Below the pieces are notes generated by a model. The model was not told the DNA's origin. It did not search any database and saw only the letters and a program-made list of their open reading frames with translations. Shown one piece after another: positions 1,044 through 32,000 of a DNA stretch of 32,000 nt (position 1 is the stretch's first letter; every line of letters begins with the position of its first letter). Position numbers and translations under genes: made by a program. Origin of the DNA: Candidatus Saccharimonadota bacterium (GTDB taxonomy: Bacteria; Patescibacteriota; Gracilibacteria; BD1-5; UBA6164); NCBI GenBank assembly GCA_004563595.2, contig CP042461.1, forward strand, positions 630,001 through 662,000, given 5' to 3'.

Positions 1044-2312
1044 TTAAGCACTTATCACATTTCACTTTTTTTCATAGGATTTCTTTCATAATTTAATTTT
1101 AGGTTTTATAGTATATTTCTTTAAGATTCTATTAATTATAGATGCTTCAAGTCATTGTTCTTGTAAATATATGATTAAATTTTCTAGTAGATCATATCAA
1201 TTAAATAGTTTTCTATTCACAAGTTTGAATTGTTTCACATTATATCATTTACTTTTAGCATATTCATATTGATATAAGCTAGTTCTATCTCTTATAGTCT
1301 CTTTTGATTCTTTTTGAACTCATAGAACGGTATCAAAGAGTCAAACATATCATGTATTATTTTGAATAGTTTTTAAATATCAGTGTGACCTAGAGAGATA
1401 ATCTTTTGGAATATGTCAGTGCTGTAAATAATAACTTTTTAGATCAAATTTTACGTTAGTATATTTTTTGAGCTCTATATCTTTGTAATGTAACTCGTGT
1501 TCTGTATATCTATTGAAGTATTTTGTAAATATTCTTTGAATAGGTTTATTTCTATTCTCTAATATATCAGAGATGGAGAAATCTGTTATTCTTTTACATT
1601 CTTCGGGTCTGAGTTCTAGTTCAATTCTTCTTACATCATGATTATGTATGAGGTGAGGATAGAGGAATCATTTTTGTTTTTTCCAGGTATCAAGTATTTT
1701 ATCATAAACTCTAAATAGAAATTTACGGTTTGAATTACTTTGTGGATTATTGATATAGTAGGTTTGACTAAACTCAGGGTGTTTTTTGTCATTTCATATT
1801 TCAGAAAAGAAATTTACGTCTTTGAGGAGTTGGGATTTAATCTTTTTAATATCATAGGGTAAATCTATAGCAATATCTAACCTGTGTAAATCTGTTTTAT
1901 CATCTGTGAAAAATGCTTCATAGAATTCTTTTATGGAGAAATCTAGTTTGTCGCTCTTTTCTAAAACAAAAAAAGTAGAATAAAAAACTACTTTATCTTT
2001 TGAACGTTGTCATATTCCCCTATTCTCTTTTCATTTCAATATAGCAAAGAGACTCACGCTTCGTCATTCAAAGGAGGCTGAAAATCTTAATCAATCAGAG
2101 TATCAAGGAGGAGAAAAGCGATGATAGGTCCAGTGTATTCAAGCAAAACTCATATGTCATCAGTCTGAATTATCCCAATCAATATTAAAGCATGGTCATT
2201 CTTGTGTATTATAATCATAGAGAGATGGAGATTCTTGATAATCTTTTATAGTAAATTCTAGATGATCTAATCAGAAGAAGATATAATCATCTTTTATATT
2301 AATTTGGGTCAT
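1044..2312 (-). CDS. Replication initiation protein, Rep_trans (PF02486-like) rolling-circle initiator, 422 aa under code 25
   Basis: Hand translation is continuous from ATG 2312 to TAA 1044, with an in-frame TAA 12 nt upstream of the ATG. Family-typical motifs are present: HRLDIAIDL, NRKFLFRVYDKILD and VRRIELELRPEEC. By my count there are 22 in-frame TGA against one GGA for Gly. No SD. Confidence 0.8.
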
Positions 2313-5653: not shown

Positions 5654-5753
5654 AACTACTACTCCTTTTAATATGGATTTCCATTTGCGCGTGCATACTA
5701 TCCAGACTTTTTTGTAAGTCAAGAATAAACTTTTATCTACTCATTTAAGCGTG

Positions 5754-5781
5754 AAAAAAGCCGTGAAGATCCACGACTTTT
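5754..5781 (-). terminator. Intrinsic terminator of cassette 5793-6170
   Basis: aaaaaaGCCGTG-aagatc-CACGaCtttt. Confidence 0.65.
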
Positions 5782-5792
5782 CATTTTCTAGA

Positions 5793-6170
5793 TTAAAAAA
5801 CGTTTAAGCTATATTCATTTATATGATGAGGTAAGACGAAAAAAAATCGACCATACTTATCCAGATTTGTGCATTTTATCTTGTTACCAAAACTGGTCAC
5901 AAGAATATTGGTAGTAGTAAAATGAACCTTTTTAGTATACTCTTTGTGTACTTGAAAAGATATATAAACTACTCTCCCCGCTTCTGTTATAAATGAACTT
6001 ATTAGAAGGTTCAAAAAGACTCCGTCTTTTGAAATTAATTCTACTAAATTACCTTCTTCGTCTTTTAATTTGAGGTTGTGCATAAGATCACTAACCTCCT
6101 TTACTAAGTCTTCATCAAAACAAATATCTTCTGATGTTTCATTAGTAATATTTACTTCAGCCACACCCAT
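5793..6170 (-). CDS. Hypothetical protein, 125 aa; member 2 of the tandem paralog trio
   Basis: AAGGAG lies 6 nt before the ATG, and TTGACA-N17-ACTATA is upstream. 6 Gly, none TGA. The C-terminal block is NLDKYGRFFFVLPHHINEYSLNVF. Confidence 0.65.
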   Translation of the reverse strand: MGVAEVNITNETSEDICFDEDLVKEVSDLMHNLKLKDEEGNLVELISKDGVFLNLLISSFITEAGRVVYISFQVHKEYTKKVHFTTTNILVTSFGNKIKCTNLDKYGRFFFVLPHHINEYSLNVF

Positions 6171-6273
6171 TTCATTCTCCTTTTAAAATTGGGTTCCATG
6201 CTATTTTATAGTATAGTAATTTAATCATATGTCAAATTTGAAAGTTTTGTATTCGGTTATTTAATATGCAAAT

Positions 6274-6299
6274 AAAAAGCCGTAAGATATACGGCTTTT
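6274..6299 (-). terminator. Intrinsic terminator of cassette 6318-6641
   Basis: aaaaAGCCGTA-agata-TACGGCTtttt. Confidence 0.75.
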
Positions 6300-6317
6300 A
6301 CATGTCTTAGCTTTTGA

Positions 6318-6641
6318 TTACAATTTTACTTTTATGGTGATAAGCGTTACTTGGTCCGTTAGAAACTCTATCATACCATTACTATCTACTTCCTGAAAAT
6401 CTTGTATATTAACCCCGTTAATTTCAACTGCAGCCCAAATTTGGCTTAGATTTATATTTTTTTTAGACTTATTATTAAAAGTTAGATAGATAAGTTTAGT
6501 CTTCCCTATATATTGAGTAATGAGCTCAAAATATAGGGAATAAGAAATAGAATCATTATCTTCATTCTGAAGGATAAGATTTCCTTTTATTTCTTCAATA
6601 CCTTCTTGTAATGTAATCATTGCTACTTGAGTATTTATCAT
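6318..6641 (-). CDS. Hypothetical protein, 107 aa; member 3 of the tandem paralog trio
   Basis: AAGGAG lies 5 nt before ATG 6641. A TTGACT-N17-ATTATA promoter sits just after the recX stop. 5 Gly, none TGA. The C-terminal block is VDSNGMIEFLTDQVTLITIKVKL. Confidence 0.6.
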   Translation of the reverse strand: MINTQVAMITLQEGIEEIKGNLILQNEDNDSISYSLYFELITQYIGKTKLIYLTFNNKSKKNINLSQIWAAVEINGVNIQDFQEVDSNGMIEFLTDQVTLITIKVKL

Positions 6642-6727
6642 TCTAGCTCCTTTTTGAATTATTTTACTCAGCATCTGTATAATATATATAAAATTAGAAG
6701 AGTCAAGTATGTCCTGATAATATATAT

Positions 6728-7657: not shown

Positions 7658-7933
7658 ATGGGTATCAAGCCATTAGCTGATAGAGTTTTATTAAAAGCAG
7701 TTACAAAAGAGAATGTGACAGCATCAGGGATATATTTACCAGAATCTGCAAATAAAGAAAGGTCGTATATGTATGAAGTAGTAGCTGTTTGAGCTGGAAA
7801 AAAAGATATTGATATGTCAGTCAAAATCTGAGATAAGGTTCTGAGTGGTCAATACTCATGAGATGATGTTAAAGTTGATGGAAATGAATACAAGATAGTT
7901 GCGATGGATTATATATTAGCAATTGTTGAGTAA
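7658..7933 (+). CDS. groES: Co-chaperonin GroES, 91 aa (code 25)
   Basis: MGIKPLADRVLLK...VAV[G]AGKK...VKI[G]DKVL...YS[G]DDVKVDGNEYKIV. All three in-frame TGA fall on conserved GroES glycines. Confidence 0.95.
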
Positions 7934-7950
7934 AAAGAGGAAAATAAAAA

Positions 7951-7996
7951 ATAACCCATCCCCCTTCGGGGACTTCCCTTCATCCGAATGGAAGAC
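7951..7996 (+). repeat. 46-nt double-hairpin intergenic element, copy 1 (after groES)
   Basis: ataacccatcccccttcggggacttcccttcatccgaatggaagac. Nearly identical to 9703-9748. Confidence 0.8.
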
Positions 7997-8027
7997 ATTC
8001 ATGTATTACCTATTAATCAAATAAACA

Positions 8028-9677
8028 ATGTCGAAAGAAATCAAGTACTCAGATGATGCAAGATCAATGATATTTAAAGGGATAGAGGTAGTTGCTAAAA
8101 CAGTAACTGTTACTATGGGGCCTAAATGAAGAAATGTTATCTTAGAGAAAGCATATTGAGCTCCTCAAGTAACAAATGATGGAGTAACTATTGCAAGAGA
8201 AATAGAGTTGGAAGATAAATATGAAAGTTTATGAGCTGAACTTGTAAAAGAAGCTGCTGAAAAAACGAATACTATTGCTGGAGATGGTACAACTACTGCT
8301 ACTCTATTAACATATGCACTTGCAAAAGAATGACTCAGATATATTAAGTCTTGAGTAAATGCAGTTGAATTAAAAAATGGTATGAAAAAAGCTGTTCAGC
8401 TAGTTTCTGATGAACTTGCTAAGAATTCAAAAGCTATTTCATCAAAAGAAGAAATAGCTCAAGTAGCGAGTATTTCTGCTCAAGATCCAGTGGTATGAGA
8501 AATTATTGCTGAAGCAATGGATAAAGTATGAAACGATGGGATTATTTCAGTTGAAGAAGGTCAAACTTTTGGTTTAGAAGTCGAAATAACTGAATGAATG
8601 GAATTTGATCAAGGATATTTGAGTCCTTATATGGTTTCAAATCCTGAAAAAATGCTTTCAGAAATAAAAGATGCTTCAATTCTTATTACAGATGGGAAAA
8701 TATCTAATATGCAAGACTTGTTACCTCTATTAGAATCTTTGGTTCAATCAGGAAAAAAAGATCTTGTTATCATTGCTGAAGATATTGAATGAGAAGTCCT
8801 CACTACGATTATTTTAAATAAACTCAAAGGTATATTAAATGTTCTTGCGATAAAAGCTCCATGATTTGGAGATACAAAAAAAGAAATGATAAAAGATATA
8901 GCTATTCTTACTTGAGCGAATGTCATTGCATCAGACTTAGGTATGAAAGTATCAGAAGTGAGTTTAGATGATTTATGAAGTGCGAAGAATGTGATGGCAT
9001 CAAAAGACGCAACCACTATTATTGCATGAAGCTGACATAAATCAGATATTGAATCCAGGGTTTCAGAGTTAAAACTTGCTATAGAAAACAGTGATTCTAC
9101 TTTTAATAAAGACAAATTAGCTGAGAGAATTGCAAAACTTGCATGAGGAGTTGCTATGATTAAAGTATGAGCTGCTTCAGAAGTTGAAATGAAAGAAAAG
9201 AAATTAAGAATTGAAGATGCATTAAATGCTACCAGAGCTGCTGTCTCAGAATGAGTTGTTGCATGAGGTTGAGTTGCTTTACTTACTGCTTCAAAGATTT
9301 TGAAATGAGTTGATTTTTGAAATGAAGACCAAACTCTTTGAGCTTCTATAGTGAAACAAGCTTTATCTTACCCAATGAAACAAATCGCAGAAAACTCTGG
9401 GAAGGAATGATCAGTAATTATGAGTAAAATTGAAGAGAGTGATAATATATTTTTCTGATATGATGCTGCTTGAGATAAATATGTTGATATGATTGTTGCT
9501 TGAATTCTAGATCCTAAAAAAGTTGCGAGAGTTGCTCTTGAAGAAGCTGTTTCACTTGCTGGTATGTTTTTAACTACAGAAGCTGCTATCACTTCCCTTC
9601 CTAAATCGGAATCAGATCTTCCAATGGGATGAATGTGAGCTGGAATGCCAGGTATGGGTGGAATGCCAATGATGTAA
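8028..9677 (+). CDS. groEL: Chaperonin GroEL, 549 aa (code 25)
   Basis: [12 protein letters not shown]...GPK[G]RNV (TGA 8127-8129)...AGDGTTTAT...C-terminal [12 protein letters not shown]. It shares its frame with the ORF-track fragment 8598-8792, and dozens of in-frame TGA align to Gly. Confidence 0.97.
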
Positions 9678-9767: not shown

Positions 9768-10178
9768 ATGATTTGCAATAAAAAAGCTTTTTCATTGGTC
9801 GAGGTAATTGTTGCTGCAACGATATTATCAATTTCAGTTTTTTGAGTATACAAATTAATATGAGAGAATAATAAATTGTTACATAATTCAGGGAATTATC
9901 TCCAGGCAAATATGTTATTTATTCCTTTTATCGAATGTCTTGATAATATTTGATTTGATTCATTTTCTGGATCAAGTACTCAGAACTATACTTTTAATTT
10001 TTGATCAGATAAAACATGATGTTTTACATGATCTATAGATGTAGTAGAACTTGATAATATTGAATATGAATTATCTTGAGTTATTACTGGTTCTTGATCT
10101 GAGTTTATCGACTGGGATTTACAGATTTCGAATGATAATATATGAGTTATTGAAAATACATATAAACAAATAAAATAA
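9768..10178 (+). CDS. Prepilin-type N-terminal cleavage/methylation domain protein (pseudopilin or minor pilin), 136 aa (code 25)
   Basis: MICNKKAFSLVEVIVAATILSISVF has a class III signal-peptide-like motif with Glu at +5 and Ala instead of Gly at -1. Checked codon by codon; about 11 TGA read as Gly. Confidence 0.75.
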
Positions 10179-10518: not shown

Positions 10519-10995
10519 ATGATTATTCTTTGAATTGATCCATGAACAACAACAACGGGTTTTGCTCTTATTAAAAAGGAATCTTGAAATTTTACATTAC
10601 TTGATTATGGTATATTTAAAACGACTCCAAAAATAGATTTAGCAATTAAGCTTTTAGAAATCTGAAATGATATAAAAGAAATTATATCTTCTTTTAAGCC
10701 TGATGTTGTAGTTATTGAAAAGCTTTTCTTTCAAACAAATTTAAAAACAGGTATCGACGTAGCACAAGCAAGATGAGTTGTTATGTATGAGTCAATAAGA
10801 GCTGATACAAAGATACTTGAGTATACTCCCCTTCAGGTAAAAAAAGCTATCACATGAAATGGTCAAGCAAATAAACTCCAACTTCAGAATGCAATTAAGA
10901 TGATATTTAAGCTTGATGAAATCCCAAAACCTGATGATGCTGCTGATGCTATTGGTCTTGCGTATATGGGTGCTTTGAATAATAGGTTGACTTAA
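10519..10995 (+). CDS. ruvC: Holliday junction resolvase RuvC, 158 aa (code 25)
   Basis: MIIL[G]IDP[G]TTTTGFALI (TGA 10531-10533 and 10543-10545 on the invariant glycines)...VVVIEKLFF...PDDAADAIGLAYM. Confidence 0.92.
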
Positions 10996-11540: not shown

Positions 11541-11617
11541 AAGGACCTAGCTTAATTAGAAGAGTGCTCGGATTCCGACCCCGAGAAGCGTACGTGCAAT
11601 TCGTGCGGTCCTTGCCA
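11541..11617 (+). tRNA. Atypical tRNA-like gene with encoded CCA; probable anticodon CCG (Arg)
   Basis: Perfect 7-bp acceptor stem AAGGACC/GGTCCTT, discriminator G, then CCA. T arm is GTACG-TGCAATT-CGTGC. Anticodon stem is CTCGG/CCGAG with a 9-nt loop ATTCCGACC, or a 7-nt loop TTCCGAC if A.C closes it. The D stem is weak (G.T, C-G, T-A, T.G), and the loop AATTAGAA lacks GG. Confidence 0.55.
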
Positions 11618-11711: not shown

Positions 11712-12239
11712 TTATAACTCATTTTCTAAATGAATCAAAGCAGTTAAAATTGCTTGTTTAGTAAAATCTTTTCTAAGTAATCTATTTTTTGATAATATGC
11801 CAATTGCTCATCATGCTTGTCATAATGATGGATTATCAGTAAAACCAGCTTTTAAATACGCTTGGTTCATATCTAGTTTTTCGACCAAGATTAAGTCTAT
11901 AATAGTTTTTGGACTTTCATAAGCAGAAGATAATCCTATATGATATTGATTTCCATCATAAATTACACATGCACATACGTTCATAAAGCCTGACTTAGTA
12001 TTAGCTACAAGCATCAGTCCATCTTCTATGCCAAAACTAATTCAATCAGATTCATAAGAGTTATAAGCTCTATTTTTAGCTCCTTCAATTGTTTCTTCTA
12101 ATGACTTAGGTTGTTCAGAGACATGAGAAGGAACAACTTTTTCAAATATTTTTGCTTCCCTAAATAACTCGTAATCTCTAATACTTTCTTCAACTGCAGT
12201 TACTTTATTTTGATTTTTAGAACCTACAAAAACTTTCAT
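11712..12239 (-). CDS. Non-canonical purine NTP phosphatase (YjjX / NTPase I-T, DUF84-like), 175 aa (code 25)
   Basis: MKVFVGSKNQNKVTAVEE...VPSHVSEQPKSLEETIEGAKNRA...[G]ISFGIEDG...[G][G]AIGILSKNRLLRKDFTKQAILTAL. This joins ORF-track fragments 12042-12239 and 11820-12014 in one frame. Confidence 0.8.
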
Positions 12240-12467: not shown

Positions 12468-13160
12468 ATGATCCAAGCTCATTTAAAGACATTAAAATTT
12501 GATTTTTCTCAACTTGATGGTAAGCAAAAATATATATGAGATATTCCCTCTTTAAGGAAACTTACTGAATTGGAGATAAATAACAAAATTACGTATTTTG
12601 TTTGAGAAAATGGTGCTTGAAAATCTACATTAATAGAAGCTATAGCAACCAGTTTTTGATTTAACAAAGAATGATGAACGAAACATTCATTATATCAAAC
12701 AAATGATACTGATAATGGAGTATCAGATTGGATTAACTTATCATGGCAGCCTATAAAATATAAAAATGGTTTTTTCTTCAGAGCTGAATGAATATATAAC
12801 TTTAATAATTATTTAGAAGAAATCGATGGTTTTTCTGCATATTGATGAGATAATTTACACAATTTCTCTCATGGTGAACAATTTATGAAAATTATTGAAT
12901 CGAGAATGGATACTGTTTGATTTTATATACTTGATGAAATAGAATCTGCCTTATCAGCAACAAATCAGCTAAAATTAGTTGAAATCATAAAATATATGAG
13001 ATCAATGTGAAGTCAGTTTATCATAGCAACCCACTCCCCTATAATATTATCAATATCAGATAGTGATATATTATCATTTGATGATTGAGAGATACAAAAA
13101 ATTGATTATGATTTTACCCCCTGTGTAGATATATATAAAAGAGTTTTACTTAAAAAATAA
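12468..13160 (+). CDS. ABC/AAA-type ATPase of unknown role, 230 aa (code 25)
   Basis: Walker A is FV[G]EN GA[G]KSTLIEAIA, there is an SHGE signature-like motif, Walker B is FYILDEIESALS, and IIATHSP follows. Checked codon by codon; ends TAA 13158-13160. Confidence 0.8.
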
Positions 13161-13259: not shown

Positions 13260-14846
13260 TTAATTCTTAAAACAACGAATAGCAGAACCCGTTGGACGTT
13301 CTATAGAATGAATAGCAGAAACGGCTGATTGAGTTGATACTCTTAAGACGTATCCATTCAAACTTGCTGGTGAAGCACTTGCATAAAATCCTATGATTTC
13401 TGTAGATGCTAAGTAAGCATTCCAATGTTGACGGTACCCATTTAATGGTAATTTAAGAGTACTTCTTATGGCTGCCCCATTATTTTGCCATCATCATGCT
13501 ATTACTACACCACTCCATTCCGTATAGGCAGGTATATGATATCATGTAACACATGGTCATTGCATTTTAGTTTGGTTACTAGGATCTGAGCTAGAATAAG
13601 TAGCTGTTGAACTATTTACAACTCACCAATCATTGGCACTTCATGCATTGGTTCATCCTGGTGACTTCCAATCATAACTCCATGAAGAGTTTGAATTAGT
13701 CCATGTTCCGTCTTCATAACTTACGTTTCTACCAAATTGGAAATGACCTCAGTATGAACTTGCAGTTGTTCATGCTATATTAGTTCATAGATTACAAGCT
13801 GATATTGTAAAAGGTCAATATCAATTTGCTGCTGGAACTGTTATATCATCTGTATCACATCATGGGTAATTAGCGTATTCATGGAATGCACTACAAGCAT
13901 TATTTTCTCATCAATTCAGACCATCACATGTCCATGTATAATTACTTCATTCTCATCCATCTGTTACGCTTGTTTGTGTTCAAGTGACACAGAGGTTAGT
14001 TGGTGTGGTTATGAAACTTCATGAATTATCTGATCCACATATCCCATTTTCTGGTGCTACATAATCTGATACTTTTCCTGTAATAATAGTTTCTGCAAAA
14101 TTTCGAGCTGTTGAGCTATCTAAACTTGCTACCACTGCATATATTTCATCATTCAACTCTGAAGTTGTTGAATATGCTGTTTTAAGGGCAAGAGCAAAAT
14201 TTTCATAGTTATCTTTTATATTATTACTGGTAAGTATTACTCATGAATTTGTAAGTTGTACTACTTGATAGTTTACAATTTTATCATTGAGTTCAAAATC
14301 CACTGCAGTGTCTAAGTCTTCTGCTGATGTATGAAGTCATGGGACTCCATAATAACTTCCATTATCTGCCAATAGATATAATCAGTTATATGTTCATTTT
14401 ACATATGGTGAAGTTGATTCTGCATAGCTTGTATTTGTGATGTTATTTTGTGCTAATTCAAAGTCATATTTTAATTCATATTCTTTCCTACTTAATGTCG
14501 TTGCATATTTCATAGTTTCCCCTGTTTTTGGATCTAGTGGTAATTTAGAAAGTCTTTCCACTTGTGTTTGTACTGTAGTATCCATATTTCAAGACTTCCA
14601 TAATATAACGGTTCATCATGAGGCTGTTATGTCTGAAGAATTTCAAGGGAGTGGATATTTTCCAGTTTTTAATGCAAAGAATTCTAATACATTTTCAGTA
14701 TTTTTTATATCTGTTATTCTTGCTCCATTTCGTGCATGCTTACTATATCATTGTAATGATATAAACGCTATAGTTCATAGGATTGTTAGAATAGTAATCA
14801 CTACTATTAATTCTACCAGAGTAAATGCTTGTTTTTTTAGATTCAT
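13260..14846 (-). CDS. Type IV pilin-like protein with a C-terminal FISUMP (Fibrobacter succinogenes major paralogous, TIGR02145-like) domain, 528 aa (code 25)
   Basis: MNLKKQAFTLVELIVVITILTIL[G]TIAF prepilin motif. The C-terminus carries [G]PCVT[G]YHIPAYTEWSGV...FYASASP...SAIRCFKN*. The whole ORF was checked codon by codon, and it includes ORF-track fragment 14394-14585. Confidence 0.8.
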
Positions 14847-15972: not shown

Positions 15973-16785
15973 ATGCCAAAATATTACAAATCAAAATTTT
16001 ATGATTCACCAATTGAGGTCCTTAATGATAATTGAGATGTTTCAGTGACCATAAAAGATTGTTTTGGAAGAAAATCAATTTATAGCTGGTATAATTTAGA
16101 AGATAAAAATTCTCAAAGTCATTATATTAATAAGTGTTTACTTGGAGGTTTTTTGCAGCAAGATATTAAAAATATTCTCGTGATTTGAGTTTGATGAGGT
16201 GCTTTTGTGAAATATTTAGAAGATCATGTACCTGGAGTGACTATTACTGGTATTGAAATAGATGAAGCTATGATTGAGATTGCTCAAAAGGAATTGAATA
16301 TAAAATCTAAGGACATGATTGTATGAGATATTTCTGATGTTATTGATCAATTGAGTGATAGGGGGGCTTATTATGATCTTATCTTGTTTGATGTATATTG
16401 ATGAACTTGAGAAATACCAAAATCAGTTACTAATAATGATCTATTTTTAAAATTAAAGTCTTTACTAGAAAACGATTGAATTTTTTCAATAAATTATTCT
16501 AACTTTTATCCTCTCTGAGAGAGTTTTATAGATATTTCAGTATCAAAGTATTATAAAACTATTCACAAGAGTCTGCAGGATGTTTTTTGAGGCAATTTTC
16601 TTGCTTTTCTCTCTGGAGAAAGTGAATGAGGAAATGTTGCGGGGATTTATAATTTGAAGAAAAAACATACTTTGAATGAGATAAAGAGTATTTATTATAA
16701 AAAGGTTCAGAGTAATGAGATTATTCTTGATTCAAGAATAATCGAATGAATTTATTTAGATAACTTGTGAAATTTTCTTGCTTAA
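15973..16785 (+). CDS. Spermidine-synthase-like class I SAM-dependent methyltransferase fold protein, 270 aa (code 25)
   Basis: ILVI[G]V[G][G]GAFVKYL...GIEIDEAMIEIA...LILFDVY. Checked codon by codon; 14 TGA against 11 GGN for Gly by my count. Confidence 0.75.
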
Positions 16786-16872: not shown

Positions 16873-18600
16873 TTATGGTAAAGCTATACCTCTTGTCATA
16901 AAATATATAATTGCGCAGAGACTTCCTGATCCAGGAACTGTTAGTACCCATGCTGATGCAATTTGTATCATATTTTTTTTAAGATTCAAGCTTCTTTGCT
17001 CTATTTCATGTTCTTTTTCTTGTGCTTTTCCTTTTTTCCTTTTAGCTTCTAATAATGAAATATTTAGGTGTATAAGTGTATCTTGTAACTTAATTATCTC
17101 ATCTTTAGTTATCTCATCTGGTTCAGCGATTGCTGATTTTCCATCTAAGACTGATTCGGTTTCTTTTATTTCTTTTTTTATTCTGTTTACTTTTTTCTTT
17201 CTTTTATTAATTTTTTTATGTGCATTCTCAAGTAGATTTGCATTTTCCCAGAATTTCGATCTTTCGCTATCTCCTTGTGGTTCTAGGATAACTACAATTT
17301 TATTTATCCATCCAATTATAGTTGGAAAATAAGCAACTGCAAATACACCTCCAACAGCTATATGAGTAGAACTAACTGGTATTCCTAGTTGTGACGCAAG
17401 AATTACAGTACAAGTTGATCCCATTGCAATAGAGAACGATCTTATTGGGGTAAGTTCTGTTATATCGCTTCCGACTTTTTTGATAATTCTTTTTCCAAAG
17501 AATCCAAGTCCGATCACAAGTCCTACAATACCAATGCCCATTATCCATAGGGGTATTGCTGCTTTTTTTGATATGCCATTATTAATAATCGCATCATAAA
17601 TTGCTGCGTATGGACCAATTGCATTTGCTATATCATTTGCTCCATGCGCAAAACATAACAGACAGGCTGCTCCTATTAATGGTTTGATAAAAAGATCATT
17701 TATCCAGTTGATGTTAGTAACAGAATTAGTAATACTCTTCTTATCAATTTTTGAAGTAGCTTTCTTAATTATTGGTTTTGCTATCAAATACGCTACAGTT
17801 GCTATACCAAACCCAATGAGTACTGCAACACTGGCATCTAAGCTTATTACTTTTTTTAATCCTTTAAGTAAAAGATAAGTAGTTGCTGACCATGTCATTA
17901 TTGCAATAACTAATGGAATTACTTTTTGTGCTGCAGCTAATTGATCTTTTTGATAAACAATAAATCTCTTAATAAACCATAAGAAGATAGCTGTTATTAT
18001 TCCACCAAGTACTGGTGAAGCAACCCAACTTCCAACAATTTTTAAAACTGTCCACCAAGCCACAATATCAAGACCACCAGCTGCTATTCCTCCTCCCAAT
18101 ACTGCTCCTACAATAGAGTGAGTCGTTGAGACCGGTGCTCCTAGTTTTGTTGCGATATTTAACCATATTCCTGCAGCAAGTAATGATGAAACCATTAAGA
18201 AAATATATTCATGTATATTTGATGAAAACATACTAGGATCAATAATTCCTTTTTTGATCGTTTTAACAACATCACCACCAGCTATGAATGCACCACCAGC
18301 CTCAAAAATAGCAGCTACAATAAGTGCAGTAGTTAATGAAAATGCTCCTGCTCCATATGCAGGACCAATATTGTTTGCTACGTCATTTGCACCAATATTT
18401 ACTGCCATATAGCCACAAACTAATGCACCAAATGCAAGAGTATAACTTGCGTTTATAATTGTGTTATCATATAGTGTAATTGTTCCAGCAAAGTATACAT
18501 ATATAGAACATGTAAGTGTTGCTAGGACTATTGCAGTAATAATGATAAAAAAATTATTAATTGTAATAGACTTATTATTGTCTACAGTTGTAGTATTCAT
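16873..18600 (-). CDS. Inorganic phosphate transporter, PiT/PHO4 family (PF01384-like), 575 aa from the second ATG
   Basis: The two PiT signature repeats GANDVANNIGP and GANDIANAIGP are present, with many TM segments. GAGGGG lies 6 nt before ATG 18600, and TTGACA-N18-TATATA is upstream. About 48 Gly codons, none TGA. A charged coiled-coil-like insert of about 100 aa lies near the C-terminus. Confidence 0.9.
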   Translation of the reverse strand: MNTTTVDNNKSITINNFFIIITAIVLATLTCSIYVYFAGTITLYDNTIINASYTLAFGALVCGYMAVNIGANDVANNIGPAYGAGAFSLTTALIVAAIFEAGGAFIAGGDVVKTIKKGIIDPSMFSSNIHEYIFLMVSSLLAAGIWLNIATKLGAPVSTTHSIVGAVLGGGIAAGGLDIVAWWTVLKIVGSWVASPVLGGIITAIFLWFIKRFIVYQKDQLAAAQKVIPLVIAIMTWSATTYLLLKGLKKVISLDASVAVLIGFGIATVAYLIAKPIIKKATSKIDKKSITNSVTNINWINDLFIKPLIGAACLLCFAHGANDIANAIGPYAAIYDAIINNGISKKAAIPLWIMGIGIVGLVIGLGFFGKRIIKKVGSDITELTPIRSFSIAMGSTCTVILASQLGIPVSSTHIAVGGVFAVAYFPTIIGWINKIVVILEPQGDSERSKFWENANLLENAHKKINKRKKKVNRIKKEIKETESVLDGKSAIAEPDEITKDEIIKLQDTLIHLNISLLEAKRKKGKAQEKEHEIEQRSLNLKKNMIQIASAWVLTVPGSGSLCAIIYFMTRGIALP

Positions 18601-18882
18601 ACACATCCCCTCATTATGAGTTTTTGAAAAGTTTATAAAACAACGTATATATAGTATGATTTTTTGTATATTGTCAAAAAGTATTTTAAATAATACTTGT
18701 ATAGTAACTGCACATGTAACAATTTACATTAGGTTCTTTTAAGACTTCGATGCTAATATAAGATTCTAATTATTTGATAATGATATATGTTAGAGGTAAT
18801 TTAGATATAGAAATTATAAATGAGTACTTAGAAAAACCTGGTTTTGAGCTTTTAATAATTGAAGCTTTTGGATAAATAATTT

Positions 18883-18914
18883 AAAAACCCTCAACCTTAT
18901 AGTTGAGGGTTTTT
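18883..18914 (-). terminator. Intrinsic terminator of cassette 18917-19324
   Basis: aaaaaCCCTCAAC-cttata-GTTGAGGGttttt. Confidence 0.8.
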
Positions 18915-18916
18915 AT

Positions 18917-19324: not shown

Positions 19325-19438
19325 TATTATTACTCCTTTTTAATTTTTAATAATTATGGCCTAAATATTTATACGAATACTTTGTAATAAGTCAAAATAG
19401 TTTTCTTTTATTTAGAAAATAAGTGAGAAAGGTAAATT

Positions 19439-19865: not shown

Positions 19866-19972
19866 TTTTCACTTTTCCTTTTTTGATTATTGTCAATGAC
19901 GAAGGAGTTATATTGATAAATATGACTAAGTCAAGAAAATATATAAAAATAAAGTATTGTATTATACAAGTT

Positions 19973-20000: not shown

Positions 20001-20034
20001 AATTGTATTCAATATATTTTGGTAATTCTTAACT

Positions 20035-20476: not shown

Positions 20477-21955
20477 TTAATATATTACATTATATGCAAT
20501 TCTATATTCATATTCTGCGTCTGATAGTTTCCATTTAAAAAGGTAGTATCAATCTAAATTATATTGTACTTGTTCTAAAAAATTATCTATTTTATCTTCA
20601 TTAATTACATAATAAGATAACTTCTTTAATTTTTGATTTTTTCAATCTTTTTTGAAATTAAAATTATCTACTTCATAATATGGGAGAATATTTTTTAAAT
20701 GAGAGAATTTAAGAGTTTCATAGGCGAGAAGTCAGTTATTTTTTCTGAACTGAATAGGTTTTAATATATTATAATCATCCCCTTCATATTTGCTACTGAG
20801 AATTGATAGATTCTTTCTAATAAATGATGTTCTATAATTGAGATCAGAGTTTTTTATCTGTTCAGGAAGATCGGAGTAATTGAATCTATTTGTGTACAAT
20901 AAATCTTTTGGAAGATTAAAGTATTTATATTCATCTTTTTCCCTTGTTTCAAGTCATCAAACTGGGTCATCAAAGGTTGGATCATAATATGTATCTCAAA
21001 CTCTTACCCATGCGTGTCATATGTTTGGAAAGTCCTGAGCATCTATTACATATCACCTAATAACTTCTGCATCTCCTATTCAGGCAAAGTATAACATATA
21101 AGTAAAATATTTTGCGTATCATTCACATACTCATTCATTATTCTTATAGGTTAATATTCATGAAAATATTTTTCTATCAGTAAGGTCGATCTCTTTTGTA
21201 TATTGAGTATTATCCAATACATAACTATAAATTTTTTGAATTTTTTCTTCCCTATTAAGTCATTTTGTTAATTGAATAGTCTTTTCCCTTAAGTCAGAAA
21301 AAAGGTCATCTGTATCACTCCATAAAGTTATTTTATCATCCTTTATTTCTAATAACAACTTAAATTTATCTGGAACTCAAAAAATGATATCATCAGGTAT
21401 GAGTTTAATCTTATTGAACTCTTTTACGAAAGCAGGTTCTCAATCATCTTTTATGAATAAGAGATGATCTTGAGTGGATATATTATTATAGCTCAGGTCT
21501 TGACTCCTTATATTTGTTCCTTTTGGAAATCATAGGTAACTTTTGAATATATAACTATACCAAACTCAGTCTTCTAAGAATATATTTTCTTTCCCATATA
21601 TTTTTTTTCTAAAATCATTACTGAAGGTAAATAACTTCATTTGCTGATTTCATTTATCGATTTTTTGTGATAATTCTAGACTAAATAACTTTTCATTTGA
21701 GAGTGCTATAATATCATTTACAAGTTCTTCTTTTTTTGTTGAAAGTTTTTTCTTCTCTTTTATCTGTTCTAATTTTTTATTAAGATTATTTAGGAATTCT
21801 ATTTCTTTTGAAAGAGAGTATTTTTTCTCTAATTTGATAATAAACTTTGAAAAAACTCGTTTTAATTTTGGATCAATAGAATTATAGGTATATGTTTGTA
21901 TTGGGATAAATAATAAAAAACTTGTACATATAATTGATGCTATGATTCTTTTCAT
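20477..21955 (-). CDS. Secreted transglutaminase-like (Cys-His-Asp core, PF01841-like) protein, 492 aa (code 25)
   Basis: Signal peptide MKRIIASIICTSFLLFIPIQTYTY. The core is NNE[G]VCE[G]YAKYFTYMLYFA[G]IGDAEVIR[G]YV...[G]HAWVRV[G]DTYYDPTFD. The whole ORF was checked codon by codon. Confidence 0.8.
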
Positions 21956-21966: not shown

Positions 21967-23526
21967 TTATTTAAGTAGTCTTGCTTTGTCTAGTTGGTTA
22001 TCAGCTCAATCTTTTTTATATTGCTCTGAATCAAATTCTAATTCAATAGTCGGAAGAATACCTATTCAATCAATTCCTGTTTGAGTTTTTCCTGTGAACC
22101 ATTTAGCGATTGTATATTTAAGTGTTGATCCATCTTTGTATTCTCTTATTGTTTGCACAGATCATTTTCAATATGATTTTTCTCAAATTATAGTTGTATT
22201 TGGGAAGTAGTCTTTTATAGTTCCAATTAGAATCTCAGAAGCTGAAGCGGTTCATGAGTTTTGTAAAATAACTATTTTATAGTCGTTAAAATCTATCATA
22301 TTATATCAACGTGATGTGTATTGTTGATTTGATTTTAAGTATTTTACTACTGCTGTTGGTTTTCACTCTTCTACGAAGTGTGAAAGTATATCAGCAACTT
22401 GTCAGAGGTAACCTCATCCGTTATTTCTAAGATCTATTATTACTTTTTTTACCCTTCTTTGTTTTTTTAGCCCCTCTAATGCATTTTTAAAGTTTTTTGA
22501 TACATTATCTCAAAAACTTTTAATTTGGATGTAATACGTATCTTTTGTTAATAGTTTTGATTCAACATTTATAATAATAATTTTTTCTCTCGTAACATCT
22601 ATATTATATTCATTTCATCATCTTATTATAGTAAGTGTTACAGCGCTTCAAGCTGGTCATTTAATCCATGATATAACTTCTTTGAGAGAATTTTCTTTCG
22701 TCACTATTTTTCCATTTACTTTTGATATAATATCTCAGCTTTGTAGTCATGCTTTTTGAGATGGAGATCATGAAATTGGAGATATTATTTTTACAATTCA
22801 GGGAGTTTCCATAAGTACGTATGAACCTATTCCTTCATATTCACCATTGAGTCACTCATTAAAGTCTTTGCTTTCTGTTGGTGGAAAATATACTGTATGT
22901 TTATCTCCTATTCCTTTTGTAATTCACTCTATGGCAGAATTGAGTATCTCATCTTCACTAATATTCCCCTTCTCATAGTGTTCTTTGATAAGAATATCAT
23001 ATACATCAACTAAGATAGATTTTTTTTGTTTTATTTGTGATGTTTGTCAATATCTTCTAAATTTTGTAAACTCAATATTTATGCGTGAGTTAAGTTTTTT
23101 CAGGTCATTTTTTGTTGTATTCCTTGCCTTTAGTTTTTCTATTTCATTTGGGTTAATCATATCAAATCCTAATACTTTTTCAGATAATCTTAAAAAAGAG
23201 TATAATTCTATCTTTTTTTCTGGATGAATGCTTGTTTCAGTATTTTTTATAAGGTCCAAAAAAACAAGTTTTTGGAGTGATTTATAGAGCTCACTATTTG
23301 TATCTAGATTTTTAAATTTTAAATCTATATATTTATAGCTTGATGTTACCTCTTTATCTATGAGTGATGCAAGGTGGTTAAAAATATCTCTTCTGCTCAC
23401 TTCATTTGAAGTTGAGATATTCGTTGTTTCAATTCAATTCATTTTTATTTTTACTGCAAAAGATTCTTGTTGAAACGATGAAAATAAAATAAAAATAGTA
23501 GTAAGTATCAGTGTAATTTTTTTCAT
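21967..23526 (-). CDS. C-terminal processing peptidase, family S41 with a PDZ domain, about 519 aa (code 25); reading frame interrupted in 22861-22922
   Basis: Signal peptide MKKITLILTTIFILFSSFQQESFA. PDZ region is SPIS[G]SPSQKA[G]LQS[G]DII. Also DLRNNG[G]GYL, catalytic-Ser motif [G]TASASEI and catalytic-Lys motif [G]K[G]SVQ. A 59-nt segment encoding TKGIGDKHTVYFPPTESKD is one nucleotide out of frame relative to both flanks. Confidence 0.85.
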
Positions 23527-23817: not shown

Positions 23818-25251
23818 TTATTTTGCTTCTTTCCAACTTAATCATGACTCTATATCCACTTTGAGTGGAATTGGGATGTCTTGAACTATGTTTTCCATTA
23901 TTATTTTTATTTCTGTTTTTAATATTTCCTTTTCTTCAGGAATAACATCAAAGACAAGTTCATCATGTACTTGCATGATCATCTTTGATTTGAGTGAATT
24001 TCTTTTTAAAAATTCTGCAATTTTTATCATTGCAATTTTTATAATATCTGCATTTGTTCATTGAATCGGCATATTTATCGCTTCCCTATTCGCAGCACTC
24101 TTTATAATACTATTTCTGTCGTTTATAGAGGGGAGATACCTTCGTCTTCAAAACATTGTTTCTACATATCCTTTTTCCTCACAATTTTTAATTGTGTTAT
24201 CAAGGTATTCTCTTACTTTTGGGTAATTTTCATAGAACTTATCAATATATATTTTTGCATCCTTCATATTTATCCCTAGCATTTTACTCAGTCAAAATCA
24301 GCTAATTCAATATATAACTCAGAAATTTACTGCTTTTGCAATTTTTCTCTCATTGTTAGTGATTGTTGATCATGGGAAAATAAATTCTGCTGTTTTATGA
24401 TGAATATCAATTTCATTTTTAAATGCTCAGAGTAAGTTTTCATCTCCTGACATGATAGCAAGAAGTCTTACTTCTACTTGTGAATAATCAGCTGCCATTA
24501 TAATTCAGTTTTCAAATCTAGATACAAATGCTGATCGAATTTCTCAGGCAATTCAATGAGATGAAGGGATATTTTGAAGATTTGGTTTCGTGCTTGAAAG
24601 TCTTCAAGTTGTTGTAACTGCAGAGTTATATGATGTATGAACCAATTCATTATCATCCAATAAGTCTAACAATCATTCAACATATGTAGATTGGAGTTTT
24701 GAATAATGTCTATAATCTACAATATTTTGAGCAATCGGGAATTCATGAGAAAGTTCTCAAAGTACATCAGCACTTACACTATATCAAGTTTTCGTTTTTT
24801 TACCTTTCGGGAGTCAGAGTTTTTCAAATAATACTTCTCCAACTTGTTTAGGAGATTTTATATTAAATTCTTCTCCAGCTTCATGAATAATTGTTTTTTC
24901 TAAAGAGTCGATTTCATTTTCAAGCAAAAGCCCTATTCCTTTGAGAGTATCTCTATTAATATGAACTCAAGTAAGCTCCATGTTCATAAGTACTTCTAAT
25001 AGAGGAAGTTCTATATCATTTAATATTTTTATATCGGTTGTTCCCTCTTCTTTATGCTGTAGGAAGATTTGATTTGTAATATATACATCTTCAGCTGAAT
25101 ATATAGCTGCTGAATCGAGTTCAACTTCTTTAAAATTAAGCTTTTTCTTATTGGTAACCTGATCATATGAAATCATTTCATAATTATCATTTTTTAATGC
25201 TAATTTATCTAATGATAATCATCTGACTCAGGGGTTTTTTATATATTCTCA
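23818..25251 (-). CDS. polA: DNA polymerase I, polymerase domain only, 477 aa (code 25)
   Basis: Checked codon by codon. Motifs: YSAEDVYIT (Exo III-like remnant), TTT[G]RLSSTKPNLQNIP, DYSQVEVRLLA (motif A), RKIAKAVNF[G]VIY[G]IS (motif B), QVHDELVF (motif C). First ATG is 25251, with an in-frame TAA at 25270-25272 and only stop-filled AT-rich DNA upstream. Confidence 0.93.
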
Positions 25252-25353
25252 TAAGAGAGTGTCATAATATTTAGCCACTTTTTATTATTAATAACTATTA
25301 ATTTTTATTATACATAGATAATCGATTATTTATAATTTGAAAAATAATTAATA

Positions 25354-27208: not shown

Positions 27209-27652
27209 TTATAATACTTCGTCAGTAAGTTTGTTATAAGTGAAAATATCAGTTCCTTTAAAGAATCTATTTAGTTCAATTTCAGCATTTTCTGAAGTAT
27301 CTGAAGCGTGGATAATATTTGCATCTATAGATAATGCAAGGTCACCTCTAATTGATCCTGGTAATGCTTCAACTGGATTTGTTGCACCAGTTAACATTCT
27401 TACTGTAGCTATTGCATTTGCACCTTTAGCTGCTATTGCTACAATTGGAGTTCTTGTCATATATTTTTTAATATTTGGAAAGAATGGTTTATCCATTAAG
27501 AAATCATAATGTTCTTCGATGATAGCATCATCTAATTGCATCATTTTTAATCCTGTAATTTTTAATCCTTTTGCTTCTAATCTAGCGATAACTTGACCAA
27601 TTAAACTTCTTTCAATTGTATCTGGTTTTAATAGTATAAGTGTAGTTTCCAT
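27209..27652 (-). CDS. ndk: Nucleoside diphosphate kinase, 147 aa
   Basis: METTLILLKPD...FFPNIKKYMTRTPIVAIAAKGANAI...NIIHASD (active-site His). No SD. All 8 Gly are GGN. Start chosen at the conserved N-terminus rather than the ORF-track start at 27685. Confidence 0.93.
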   Translation of the reverse strand: METTLILLKPDTIERSLIGQVIARLEAKGLKITGLKMMQLDDAIIEEHYDFLMDKPFFPNIKKYMTRTPIVAIAAKGANAIATVRMLTGATNPVEALPGSIRGDLALSIDANIIHASDTSENAEIELNRFFKGTDIFTYNKLTDEVL

Positions 27653-27811
27653 ATCGGCTATTTTTATAATTATAAAATACGTCAAGATTATATATATATT
27701 CTGAAAAAAGCAATCTTTTCTTTACTATACTTTGATTCTTGAAGGGTTGCTTTTTAATGATTATTGCATATATTTAGCTGCAATATATATATTATAAATA
27801 AAAAGAGAGGA

Positions 27812-30235
27812 ATGAATAGCGCAATTAATAGTAGTCCAGTAGAAAATGAAATATTAAAGACTCAGACTTTACTTGAGAAGTTTCCAAATGAGGTAAATGA
27901 ATTTCTAGAAGATATAAGGGGTTATTTAAAACTTGAGAAAGGTTTCGATTTTTCATCAATTACATTTGATCCAGATATAGATATATGTGAAGATGGTATT
28001 TCATTGGAGCTAAAAGAATCATGAAAAAAGAAATTAATAAAACTTCTTACTTATAGAGCTTTTGAGAAGGAGCTTGTAAATGAATGAGGAATTGATGATA
28101 TTAAGCTTAGTAAGGTGATTTTTCATATAGAAAGAGCTCAACAAGCACTTGATATAAGTGAAAATGCAAAAAATAAAAAACTGAATGATATTAAGACCTT
28201 AATTGGGGAATTAGATTGAAAGTGAATTGATAAATCCGAAGTACAGGAAGAAATTAATTCATTAAATGAAGACTTTATAGATCTGAATAATGATTGTATA
28301 ATTACAAATAACACACTAGAAAATAAAAAAAATAAAAAAAATGATTATTTAAAAAAAACTGATTTTTTTAAATCTTTTTCATCTAATTTTATATGATATA
28401 TACTTTTTTCTGAGGGAAGTACTTGTATTAATACGGTACGAATGTTAGAAGAAGATACGGAAATAATAACTGACAAAGAAGTAGAAAAAAATAAAATAGA
28501 AGAAAAAAATGTGCAAAAATATATTTCAATTTTAAATTTATTTCTACAAACATCATACTCTGATTCAAAAAAAACAGTTTCTTTAATAAAACCATTTGAA
28601 TTATCAGTTCAAGAAAAAGTATCTGGAATTACATATAGTGATGTTAATTCCTCTATTGATAATCGTACTATATGAATTTCACAGAAAATTAATGACTTTA
28701 TTGAGAAAAATAAGAAGATGGCAAGAATCATACTATTTTCTTGTATATGAATAGCTTCTAATTATATGATTTATTCAGATCCAAATACAAAAGATATACC
28801 CTATAATACTGCAGATTATAAAGATCAAAGCTTTTTAAAAGCACAAGTTGAGAAATTTATGAAAGACTCCATAGCTGATTCAGGCTCTATGCATGCTATT
28901 TGATATCACTTTAAGCAAAACTTTACAAAGAGTAAACTTTATTCACCTTCATCATTAAGTTCATATTGATACGAAGTTGTAAGTAGTGATAATGAATGAA
29001 TTGAAATTAGTTTTACAGAAAAGGGTTATAATAAGGTATTTTTTACTTATAAATATCTTTTTAATACTGATGAAAAAGAACACATTCAAGAATGAGCTGA
29101 TAAAGTCTTGAAAAATAGACTTAACTTTCTGATAGATGAATCAATTTCAATAGCGGTAAAAGAATTAGGTTTTAATTTAAATAGCCTCGGAGTAGAGGAG
29201 CTTTTAAAAAATAAAATTCTTGATGGAATTGATAATAAAGATTTAAGTCCTGATTTTAAACTAGATGTATCTGTTGATATGGTAGAAAACCAAGAGGAAT
29301 CATTAATAAATATTAAGATTACTAGTATTGTTCGACCAGAATTTCTTATTGAGTATCAAAAGAATCCCCCAGTTGAGAATATCTATAAAAAATATATGGA
29401 TCCAAGGCTCAGTTGATTTGAAAAGATGGTTATAGAAAATCTTCCTTCATTTAATACAATAAATACAGTTGTTTATGAAAGACTCTTTGAGAGTTACCTA
29501 GAGAACCATTTATTAAAATTTCTTAGACTAAATTCAAAAAAATATGATAGGTATATTTCATCTGTTGAAATAAAGAGCCTTAAATATAAAAATCAAAGCT
29601 TGCATTATGAATTATTTTTTACTTATGAAGATCGTTCAGTTGATAAAAAACCGCAATTAAGAGTTATTCCATTAGATGAATTGTATTTCCCTATGTGGAT
29701 CAATTGAAAACTTATGGATATGATATATTCTTCTATAAAGAGAACCACTCCTGAAAATATATCACAAGATCTGCTAAATAGGTTTTTTATTCTTTTGCGT
29801 CGTGATTTACCAGAGGATAAGTATAGTTTATTATTAAAAAATGAATGAAATATTTATACTTTCACTTTTAAAAATAAAGCATGACTAACTATCTATGAAA
29901 TAGATCAAGACATAAGGCTAGGAGGTGCATCAAATATTGTATCTTGCAATTTATGTAAGATACAAAATAAATTTTTAGAGTCGATGAATCATATTTATGA
30001 AAATTGAAATTTAGCGAACCTTGATCTAATTAAATTTAAAATTTCTACTGATATTAGATGACTTCTCGATACTTTTTGATGAGATTATCAAGAGGGAAAA
30101 TATGATGATAGAGAAATAATTGTTGGTATTCCGGATCTTTATTCAGGTAAAACACCTATTTATTCATTATTTTTACCAATTTTATCAAAAAATGGTTTTA
30201 AGATGGAGGATTTTTACTATTCTCCTACAGAATAA
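27812..30235 (+). CDS. Large hypothetical protein, 807 aa (code 25), no recognisable domain
   Basis: ORF-track fragments 27764-28024, 28442-28675, 29108-29416 and 29426-29707 share one frame. I checked every gap and the tail codon by codon and found only TGA, never TAA or TAG, up to TAA 30233-30235. Confidence 0.65.
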
Positions 30236-30249: not shown

Positions 30250-30294
30250 AAAAAAAAAGAAACACTTATTAATCAATAATAAGTGTTTCTTTTT
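30250..30294. terminator. Bidirectional intrinsic terminator (13-bp stem)
   Basis: AGAAACACTTATT-aatcaat-AATAAGTGTTTCT flanked by A and T runs. It overlaps the last codons of trhO. Confidence 0.8.
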
Positions 30295-31354
30295 GTGATA
30301 TTTTATGGTTAAATGATACTCCTTCCAATTTCTCAGATAAATGCGTTCTTATTTTATTCATGATTTCATCTTTTTTCTCTGGGTGAACTTTTATATCTGC
30401 CCTGAGTAATTTATAATTCATTCTATCAAAATCAGATGTTTTGATATGCCCTGTTTCCAGTGCATTATCTACACATTCTTGACTACAAAATCAGTAATGA
30501 TTTTTGTATTCTTTTTCATCAGCGATAATTCTAGCATTACAATGACTATACCTACAGTTTTCACAATTATCTGTTTTTTTATCTGAAAAAATACATTCTC
30601 AAATAATGGTATGAGTATTTTCATCTCATACATAGTCAGAAACTCTATCATCAAATACATATAAGTTTCCTTCCCAGTTTCCATCGTTAAATGTATTTAT
30701 ATATTTAACCACTCCACCATCAAGCTGATATGTATTTTTGAGTCCTGCTTTTTGAAGCATAACCGTTGATTTCTCACATCTTATACCTCATGTACAATAT
30801 GAAATAACCTTTTTATCTCAGAATTGTTTTTTGTAGTTTTCTATTTCAGTTTCTAGTTCTCTAAAATTAAGTGTATTCGCTGGAATTGCATTTTTGAAAT
30901 GTCCCACTTTGTATTCATGATTATTTCTCATATCTAGTATTATATAATCATCGGTATTTCCGTTATCAATAATATCTTTAAAATCCTCGATTGACATTCT
31001 ATTCCCTGCTTCATCTATTTCTGATTTTGAATATTTTTTTCCAAGTGCTACAATTTCTTCTTTGTACTTCACGGCCATTCTTGGGAATTTATGTCCGTCT
31101 ACTTTTGAGGTTTTGATATCAAAATCTTCTGGGTTATTGAATAATGGGTGTTGATCTAAATACATTTTGTATGCTTTTAGTTGTCATTCATTACAAGTAA
31201 CAGTTGATGAGATTCCTTCTGTTCATATATAGATTCTTCATTTCATTCAGATATCTTTACAGAATTTAAGGTGATCTTCTACTTCTTTCTCTGGATTTAC
31301 TACGTCTACAAACTTATAAAAAGTTATAAGTTTAAATTGTTCTTTATATAACAT
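30269..31354 (-). CDS. trhO: Rhodanese-domain tRNA uridine(34) hydroxylase TrhO (YceA/UPF0176 family), 361 aa (code 25)
   Basis: MLYKEQFKLITFYKFVDV...[G]RIYI[G]TEGISSTVT...ILDMRNNHEYKVGHFKNA...SYCT[G]GIRCEKS (rhodanese active-site Cys loop)...Cys-rich C-terminus. Confidence 0.85.
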
Positions 31355-31582
31355 ATAATATATTTCTAAATAATAACTTGCATGGTTATTGCAAAAATAT
31401 CTCTGATCCATTTGTGTGGTAGAGTGCGTGTATTATAAGAATAATTCTCATATTGCAAGATAGATAATAGTATATAAAATAATATTTTGATTTTAATGAA
31501 ATATTGAATACCTTGTTGTTACATTATTTTATATGTCGTAAGGCTAACTTACCCTTAGTTTTATTCACTAACCCTGTATATT

Positions 31583-32000
31583 ATGACAAAACAACTAGAA
31601 CTCCTCATGCCTGCATGAGATTTTGAGAAATTAAAATTCGCTTATGCATATGGTGCTGATGCATGTTATGTATGAGTGCCAATGTTTTCACTCAGAGCAA
31701 GAACGAATACTTTTAATATGAAAACAATCAAAGAAGCCGTAGATTATGCTCATAATTTGTGAAAAAAAATATACTTTACTGCAAATATATATGCACATAA
31801 TGTAAAAATTAAACCATTTATGGCTCAGTTTTCTAAAATGGTTGAAATGAAACCCGATGCTTTTATTATGGCTGATCCATGATTGATTAGTATAGTAAGA
31901 AAGCAATTTCCAGATGTAGAAATTCATCTCTCAGTTCAAGCAAATAATACAAACTGGGCCCAAGCTGAGTTTTGGAGTGATTTAGGAATAAAAAGAATTA
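31583..32000 (+). CDS. Peptidase U32 family protein (YegQ/TrhP-like), N-terminal 139 codons, continues past the window edge (code 25)
   Basis: MTKQLELLMPA[G]DFEKLKFAYAYGADACYV[G]VPMFSLRARTN...FTANIYAHN...FIMADP[G]LISIVRKQFPDVEIHLSVQAN closely follows the N-terminal pattern of E. coli YegQ as I recall it. Confidence 0.88.

Follow-up and report, generated by a model that had tools for sequence, protein, structure and literature searches.

Which amino acid does UGA specify in the 32,000-nucleotide stretch of contig CP042461.1 analysed here (assembly GCA_004563595.2, positions 630,001 to 662,000)? Throughout this stretch, hereafter the window, in-frame TGA codons lie within conserved genes, among them groES, groEL, ruvC, polA and the gene for an S41 peptidase, and the original prediction was that the window is written in NCBI translation table 25, the code in which UGA is read as glycine. 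We regard it as almost certain that the window belongs to the chromosome of Candidatus Gracilibacteria bacterium 28_42_T64, a member of the Candidate Phyla Radiation in the BD1-5 lineage, or to that of a nearly identical strain, and that it uses table 25. The prediction is correct but describes something already known, since the 28_42_T64 genome was published with code 25, since a screen with Codetta gave UGA = Gly for it, and since the assignment has been confirmed by proteomics in the order BD1-5. UGA = Gly has been known for the lineage since 2013-2014 and is not a discovery here.

The source is identified by three proteins encoded in the window, GroEL, the phosphate transporter PiT and NDK, which are each 100% identical to NCBI proteins of 28_42_T64 (GCA_004563595.2); for GroEL the match to the entry named 'chaperonin GroEL' is perfect outside the 28 TGA sites. 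The other top GroEL matches bearing source names are all Gracilibacteria except one 'Candidatus Altimarinota', and with the three identities they put the window in the Gracilibacteria/Absconditabacteria clade, as had been proposed from the codon usage. Sieber et al. (2019) described the closed genome (1.34 Mb, 28.87% G+C, 33 tRNA genes), predicted its genes with code 25, and detected prfB neither there nor in any other BD1-5 genome then available, prfA being present (PMC6851277). The Codetta screen of Shulgina and Eddy yielded UGA = Gly, CGA = Arg and '?' for CGG in GCA_004563595.2, which GTDB places in order BD1-5 (PMC8629427 source data). Proteomics confirmed UGA = Gly in another BD1-5 bacterium (Hanke et al. 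2014, PMC4032931). The window shares with table 25, the code of SR1 and Gracilibacteria, the Gly meaning of UGA, the stops UAA and UAG, a low G+C content (28%), the BD1-5 lineage and a source genome published under that table. Nothing differs for UGA; the point of difference is CGG, left as '?' by Codetta in 28_42_T64.

Reading frames and the residue at TGA

Read with the standard bacterial code (table 11), the whole window yields 19 open reading frames (ORFs) of at least 100 amino acids (aa), 2,933 aa in total, while reading TGA as a sense codon yields 41 such ORFs with 9,619 aa. A control in which TAG was made a sense codon (21 ORFs, 3,165 aa) hardly changed the table 11 result. The fragmentation of genes by the standard code is thus as had been predicted, and so is its repair: 29 non-overlapping TGA-sense gene models cover 75% of the window. 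In the set of 30 models described next, the 29 that are complete terminate with TAA (26) or TAG (3), each where its family would be expected to stop. GroEL, for instance, closes with its usual Gly/Met-rich tail followed by TAA. UAA and UAG are retained as stops.

Codons were counted in 30 gene models, namely the non-overlapping set and a doubtful overlapping ORF at 18903-19343. They contain in frame 251 TGA, 270 GGN and 45 TGG codons, so that TGA represents 2.6% of codons overall and some 48% of those for Gly. The 251 interruptions are without exception TGA, with no TAA, no TAG and no frameshift among them. Only with TGA as sense are several Pfam domains spanned, including Cpn60 (positions 1-486 of 490), DNA_pol_A (3-381 of 381), RuvC (1-145 of 148) and Peptidase_S41 (4-164 of 165); TGA-sense models also cover Cpn10, PDZ, NTPase_I-T, PHO4, NDK, UPF0176/rhodanese and U32 from end to end. 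The prediction went too far in holding that all standard-code annotation of the region must be wrong. Most genes are indeed fragmented, but the two codes give one and the same translation for PiT (577 aa), for NDK and for at least seven small ORFs, none of which has an in-frame TGA.

The TGA codons named in the prediction all proved to be in frame and in the expected context. They are, in groES, VAV-TGA-AGKK (7790-7792); in groEL, GPK-TGA-RNV (8127-8129); in ruvC, IL-TGA-IDP-TGA (10531-10533 and 10543-10545); in polA on the minus strand, TTT-TGA-RLSS (24604-24606) and NF-TGA-VIY-TGA (24319-24321 and 24307-24309); and in the S41 peptidase gene, NNG-TGA-G (22414-22416) and TGA-K-TGA-SVQ (22168-22170 and 22162-22164).

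The residue at these and the other TGA codons was read from standard-code organisms. With TGA masked as X, the five proteins were aligned to solved structures, and the residue standing in each TGA column was tabulated. GroEL aligned to PDB GroEL with E = 1e-160, and its TGA columns hold Gly at 25 of 28 positions in Paracoccus (1IOK) and at 23 of 26 in an ancestral chaperonin (9RWR). For RuvC the figure is four of six in each of three references (E. coli 1HJR, 6LW3 and Thermus 4EP4), and for GroES three of three in two PDB GroES sequences. The more variable families behave alike at both kinds of codon: against Bst Pol I (6MU4), PolA has Gly at 9 of 21 TGA columns, with Trp at one, and at 4 of 9 GGN columns; against B. 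subtilis CtpB (4C2C), the S41 peptidase has Gly at 10 of 20 TGA columns and 7 of 15 GGN columns. Taking one reference per family over the five families, TGA columns are Gly in 51 of 78 cases and Trp in one. The window's GGN columns match Gly equally often (33 of 53), against 2.5% for other columns. If GroES is set aside, Gly occupies 48 of 75 TGA columns (binomial p = 4.5e-34 against a background of 8%), and the BLOSUM62 sum over these 75 columns is +247 for Gly, with Ser as runner-up at -1. The placement of TGA on Gly positions in all five families, as the prediction had it, is therefore borne out by alignment, and UGA read as Gly rather than Trp is supported.

Of the other readings considered, the one that survives best concerns CGG and is taken up with the atypical tRNA below. 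Among those that concern UGA itself, the first is code 4 (UGA = Trp), the code of Mycoplasmatales and several insect endosymbionts. NCBI table 4, as used by Mycoplasma, Spiroplasma and some endosymbionts, has in common with the window a reassigned UGA in an AT-rich reduced genome without release factor 2 (RF2), an absence that for 28_42_T64 is reported in the literature, and the two codes give identical ORF maps, so ORF lengths alone cannot tell them apart; the difference is in the residue inserted. Code 4 can point to the PolA TGA that aligns with Trp in the Bst polymerase and to a public entry (P0001) in which the window's GroEL carries W at 28 of 28 sites. That translation gives GroEL 28 Trp residues where the PDB GroEL references have none at the aligned columns. 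Trp fits none of the positions listed in the prediction, as it had stated; the lone Trp column belongs to a different PolA TGA. With the excess of Gly over Trp in the structural references, the Gly call of Codetta for the 28_42_T64 genome and the codons of relatives described next, we hold code 4 to be very improbable.

Codons of relatives and decoding machinery

Evidence free of database translations came from four relatives (GroEL identity 71-74% at the aa level), whose groEL loci were aligned with the window codon by codon. At the window's groEL TGA columns the 112 codons of the relatives are 41 TGA, 59 GGN, 12 others and no TGG. In the reverse direction, the relatives' TGA columns correspond in the window to 41 TGA and 26 GGN. 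The window's TGA columns, then, hold Gly and alternate with GGN, never with TGG. The same exchange can be seen through the mistranslation of 103 related GroEL entries that carry W at TGA: at the window's TGA columns G accounts for 47% of their residues and W for 43%, at its GGN columns for 55% and 32%, and at the remaining columns for 1.1% and 0.6%. From the alternation in groEL DNA and from these W-form entries it follows that TGA and GGN act as synonymous codons across the lineage.

A further possibility is that the window comes from a standard-code organism and that its genes are pseudogenes or damaged by assembly or sequencing errors. Nearly every conserved gene is indeed interrupted under table 11, but decay or error would have to produce 251 TGA interruptions out of 251, in genes that are essential and highly conserved (GroEL, PolA, RuvC), and to repeat the TGA/GGN alternation in many relatives that were assembled independently. 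A Logan contig, itself a separate assembly, also has a PiT gene identical to the window's and keeps the window's gene order over about 14 kb. We consider this explanation extremely improbable.

The 103 W-form entries are drawn from 118 related GroEL entries, so that many Gracilibacteria proteins in such collections are systematically mistranslated. The window's own groEL is present in public collections twice, with W at all 28 sites (P0001) and with G at all 28 (P0002). The practical point is one of annotation: table 11 truncates most genes, a fallback to table 4 writes Trp where the cell puts Gly, and profiles and structure predictions built on W-form sequences inherit the error. Confirming UGA = Gly in this window opens no new scientific question.

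For the machinery that would read UGA, we scanned GTDB species genomes for tRNAs that combine the anticodon UCA with an acceptor stem of the Gly type, and obtained at least 120 matches. Among the matches listed, 62 of 120 are one highly conserved 74-nt tRNA (GCGGRYRTGATGTARTTGGTGTAGCATRGCAGAMTTCAGCTCTG...), nearly invariant in sequence, whose source genomes are labelled SR1, Absconditabacteria, Gracilibacteria, Patescibacteria or, for some metagenome-assembled genomes (MAGs), 'Peribacteria'. A tRNA-Tyr gene lies in the same stretch at 53 of these 62 loci, and where we inspected the loci the tRNA genes recur as one cluster, tRNA(UCA) - Tyr - Ala - Arg(UCU) - Glu(CUC) ... Leu(UAA). At two Gracilibacteria loci (L044 and L079) the cluster is upstream of rpsD-rpoA, with infC between them in L079. 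The 28_42_T64 chromosome is absent among the matches listed, and we infer by analogy with the related genomes that a tRNA-Gly(UCA) is its UGA decoder; RF2 loss in 28_42_T64 is taken from the literature (PMC6851277).

Readthrough of UGA as selenocysteine, or by occasional programmed recoding, has in its favour the ARAGORN label 'SeC' on every tRNA(UCA), and its probability is negligible given how common TGA is, how its tabulated reference columns align with Gly and never Cys, and that the 74-nt tRNA(UCA) of the relatives, among the matches listed, lacks the long variable arm of tRNA-Sec.

In the proposed mechanism, UGA would be read as Gly, presumably by a tRNA-Gly with anticodon UCA, for which the expected Gly identity elements are G1:C72, C2:G71, G3:C70 and U73, and with RF2 absent, and UAA and UAG, recognised by RF1, would be the only stops. 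In this genome of 28% G+C, some half of the Gly codons are TGA, which alternates freely with GGN at the same protein positions. With TGA so frequent among the Gly codons and interchangeable with GGN, gene callers that apply table 11 fragment most genes.

Several observations weigh against UGA = Gly under table 25. In the references about one-third of TGA columns hold something other than Gly, although GGN at variable positions shows the same rate, and at FEN-TGA-IIMAADYSQ in PolA the TGA aligns with Trp of the Bst polymerase. A subset of genes has no TGA at all. Neither a tRNA(UCA), sought with ARAGORN, nor a release-factor gene is found within the 32-kb window. Lastly, the Gly-type acceptor-stem features of the tRNA(UCA) matches were imposed by the search pattern, and the Gly identity features of these matches are therefore not independent evidence.

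The scan also returned, among the matches listed, tRNAs from outside the code 25 clade that are of Gly type, have the anticodon UCA, measure 71-73 nt and are in sequence like an ordinary tRNA-Gly (loci L003, L009, L024, L034, L039, L083, L084 and L115). Their genomes include MAGs assigned by label to Anaerolineaceae, Akkermansia, Archangium and Gemmatimonadales, as well as a Streptococcus sp. These tRNAs could be opal suppressors, contamination or assembly variants.

Genes without TGA and an atypical tRNA

The TGA share of Gly codons is bimodal among genes, 0.31-0.96 in most and zero in a subset. PiT has TGA at none of its 48 Gly codons (binomial p = 1.5e-14) and NDK at none of 8. Zero values are also found in a lipoprotein-like ORF at 25386-25991 on the plus strand (0/11) and, on the minus strand, in three adjacent ORFs at 5225-6674 (0/21) and two ORFs at 19491-20421 (0/10). 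Two ORFs, at 3006-3311 (+) and 15098-15550 (-), have as sole TGA their last codon, followed directly by TAA or TAG (TGATAA, TGATAG); neither has a match in PHROGs or Pfam. At the opposite extreme stand two unknown proteins encoded on the minus strand, in which TGA accounts for 22 of 23 Gly codons (1044-2312) and 15 of 16 (26331-27173).

The causes of the TGA-free state look mixed. Besides its own entry, PiT has a single match at 89% identity, encoded on a short metagenome contig from JGI. Identity then falls to about 50%, and the homologues at that level that bear names belong to Campylobacterales or Gammaproteobacteria. On account of these distant nearest relatives, acquisition of PiT from a standard-code donor is suggested. 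NDK has relatives in Gracilibacteria at 75-95% identity, which have TGA at about 11% of Gly columns, against 43% in GroEL, and this comparison points to gene-specific avoidance of TGA rather than transfer. Horizontal gene transfer was accordingly rejected as a general cause, being ruled out for NDK by its TGA-poor Gracilibacteria relatives and kept for PiT only.

A phage origin was considered as well. Phages predicted to infect Gracilibacteria have been described that lack in-frame TGA and whose TGA stops have another stop close by as a backup (Liu et al. 2023, PMC10746230). The window resembles these code 11-compatible genes in its ORFs without in-frame TGA and in the two ORFs with TGA and a backup stop, but its ORFs are chromosomal, include ordinary cellular genes (PiT, NDK) and match nothing in PHROGs. 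We rejected phage origin for the TGA-free ORFs: ten unknown proteins, seven of them from the TGA-free or low-TGA set, had no PHROGs match, and no phage hallmark gene was seen in the window.

The only tRNA in the window has the anticodon CCG. A whole-window Rfam scan at the gathering threshold gave no match, and a local scan was needed to score it. It also follows ruvC in a relative (L124), with compensatory changes in the acceptor and T stems, and a family of such tRNAs was collected from metagenomes, with 37 distinct sequences at 50 loci. Covariation among these 37 sequences strongly supports the cloverleaf: 96.8% of cells are paired and 14 of 22 pairs have changed on both sides, values that none of 500 shuffles reached. 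The anticodon stem has six pairs, the loop-closing one being U-G, C-G, U-A or A-U in 17 sequences and A.C in 20, the window's included. Among the features that do not vary in the family are A20, the pair A1:U72, G73 and a CCA end that the gene itself encodes. All members also share the D-loop AAUUAGAA and, with G55, the T-loop UGCAAUU, but both were fixed by the search pattern. The table of Shulgina and Eddy lists no tRNA(CCG) and no tRNA(UCG) for GCA_004563595.2 (PMC8629427).

By the identity rules of Shulgina and Eddy, A20, C35 and G36 are Arg-type features of this tRNA, and A1:U72 and G73 are Trp-type. On these sequence features its amino acid identity, Arg or Trp, is ambiguous. It would bear on a code that goes beyond table 25, with UGA = Gly and with CGG no longer Arg but Trp or unassigned. 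Codetta inferred CGG = Trp in two other BD1-5 genomes (PMC8629427) and returned '?' for GCA_004563595.2, the Trp-type A1:U72 and G73 are present in the window's tRNA, and CGG is nearly unused, occurring once in about 9,600 ORF codons of the window. Set against this are the Arg-type A20, C35 and G36 of the same tRNA, and the CGG codons of relatives, which by eye fall on conserved Arg of GroEL, ThrRS and DnaA, at loci (L123 and L125) that have no tRNA(CCG) in the stretch fetched. We judge this wider departure from table 25 distinctly unlikely. No CGG was found in a conserved column (families of at least five members) among 51 tRNA(CCG) loci, 313 kb including the window.

If the tRNA(CCG) were charged with Trp, or if it read CGA by C:A pairing, the code would differ from table 25 at the CGR codons (CGA and CGG); novelty in the window, if there is any, would lie here. 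A speculative proposal, to which we give little credence, is that the atypical tRNA(CCG) might be the only tRNA of the genome to read CGA and CGG and that, separately, the TGA-free genes, as opposed to the TGA-rich ones, might be genes kept readable in both codes.

Gene content of the window

Under table 25 the window encodes the proteins and the tRNA collected in Table 1, the five families used for alignment included.

Table 1. Features of the window, with coordinates counted from its first nucleotide
Feature	Coordinates	Strand	Evidence and in-frame TGA
Unknown protein (422 aa)	1044..2312	-	Pfam, PHROGs: no match; TGA at 22/23 Gly codons
groES (91 aa)	7658..7933	+	Pfam Cpn10, 86 bits; 3 in-frame TGA
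groEL (549 aa)	8028..9677	+	PDB GroEL matches; 28 in-frame TGA, TAA end
Small pilin-like protein (136 aa)	9768..10178	+	Pfam N_methyl; 9 TGA
ruvC (158 aa)	10519..10995	+	Pfam RuvC, 150 bits; 6 in-frame TGA
tRNA, anticodon CCG, atypical	11541..11617	+	ARAGORN; Rfam tRNA model, 39.6 bits (local scan)
NTPase_I-T family protein (175 aa)	11712..12239	-	Pfam PF01931; 4 TGA
AAA/ABC-type ATPase (230 aa)	12468..13160	+	Pfam AAA_21, SMC_N; 12 TGA
Pilin-like protein, N-terminal methylation motif (528 aa)	13260..14846	-	Pfam N_methyl; 29 TGA, 9 TGG
Methyltransferase / spermidine-synthase-like protein (270 aa)	15973..16785	+	Pfam; 14 TGA
PiT/PHO4 phosphate transporter (577 aa)	16873..18606	-	Pfam PHO4; 0 TGA
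Transglutaminase-like protein (492 aa)	20477..21955	-	Pfam Transglut_core; 18 TGA
S41 C-terminal processing peptidase with PDZ domain (519 aa)	21967..23526	-	Pfam Peptidase_S41, PDZ; 23 TGA
polA, polymerase domain only (486 aa)	23818..25278	-	Pfam DNA_pol_A, 473 bits; 21 TGA
ndk (147 aa from ATG)	27209..27652	-	Pfam NDK; 0 TGA
Large unknown protein (823 aa)	27764..30235	+	Gene model; 19 TGA
UPF0176 / rhodanese (TrhO-like) protein (380 aa)	30269..31411	-	Pfam UPF0176_N, Rhodanese, Rhodanese_C; 9 TGA
U32 peptidase, 5' part, runs off the window	31559..31999	+	Pfam Peptidase_U32; 4 TGA

Two of these genes have products of unusual build. In the alignment with the Bst large fragment, the polA product takes up residues 93-577, and it has no 5'-nuclease domain; the next gene upstream is on the opposite strand, so the product is a short Pol I consisting of the polymerase domain only. 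In PiT the PHO4 domain extends over residues 71-562, yet the profile match comprises only 350 positions, and a long charged insertion rich in Lys and Glu lies near the C-terminal end, at roughly residues 430-545.

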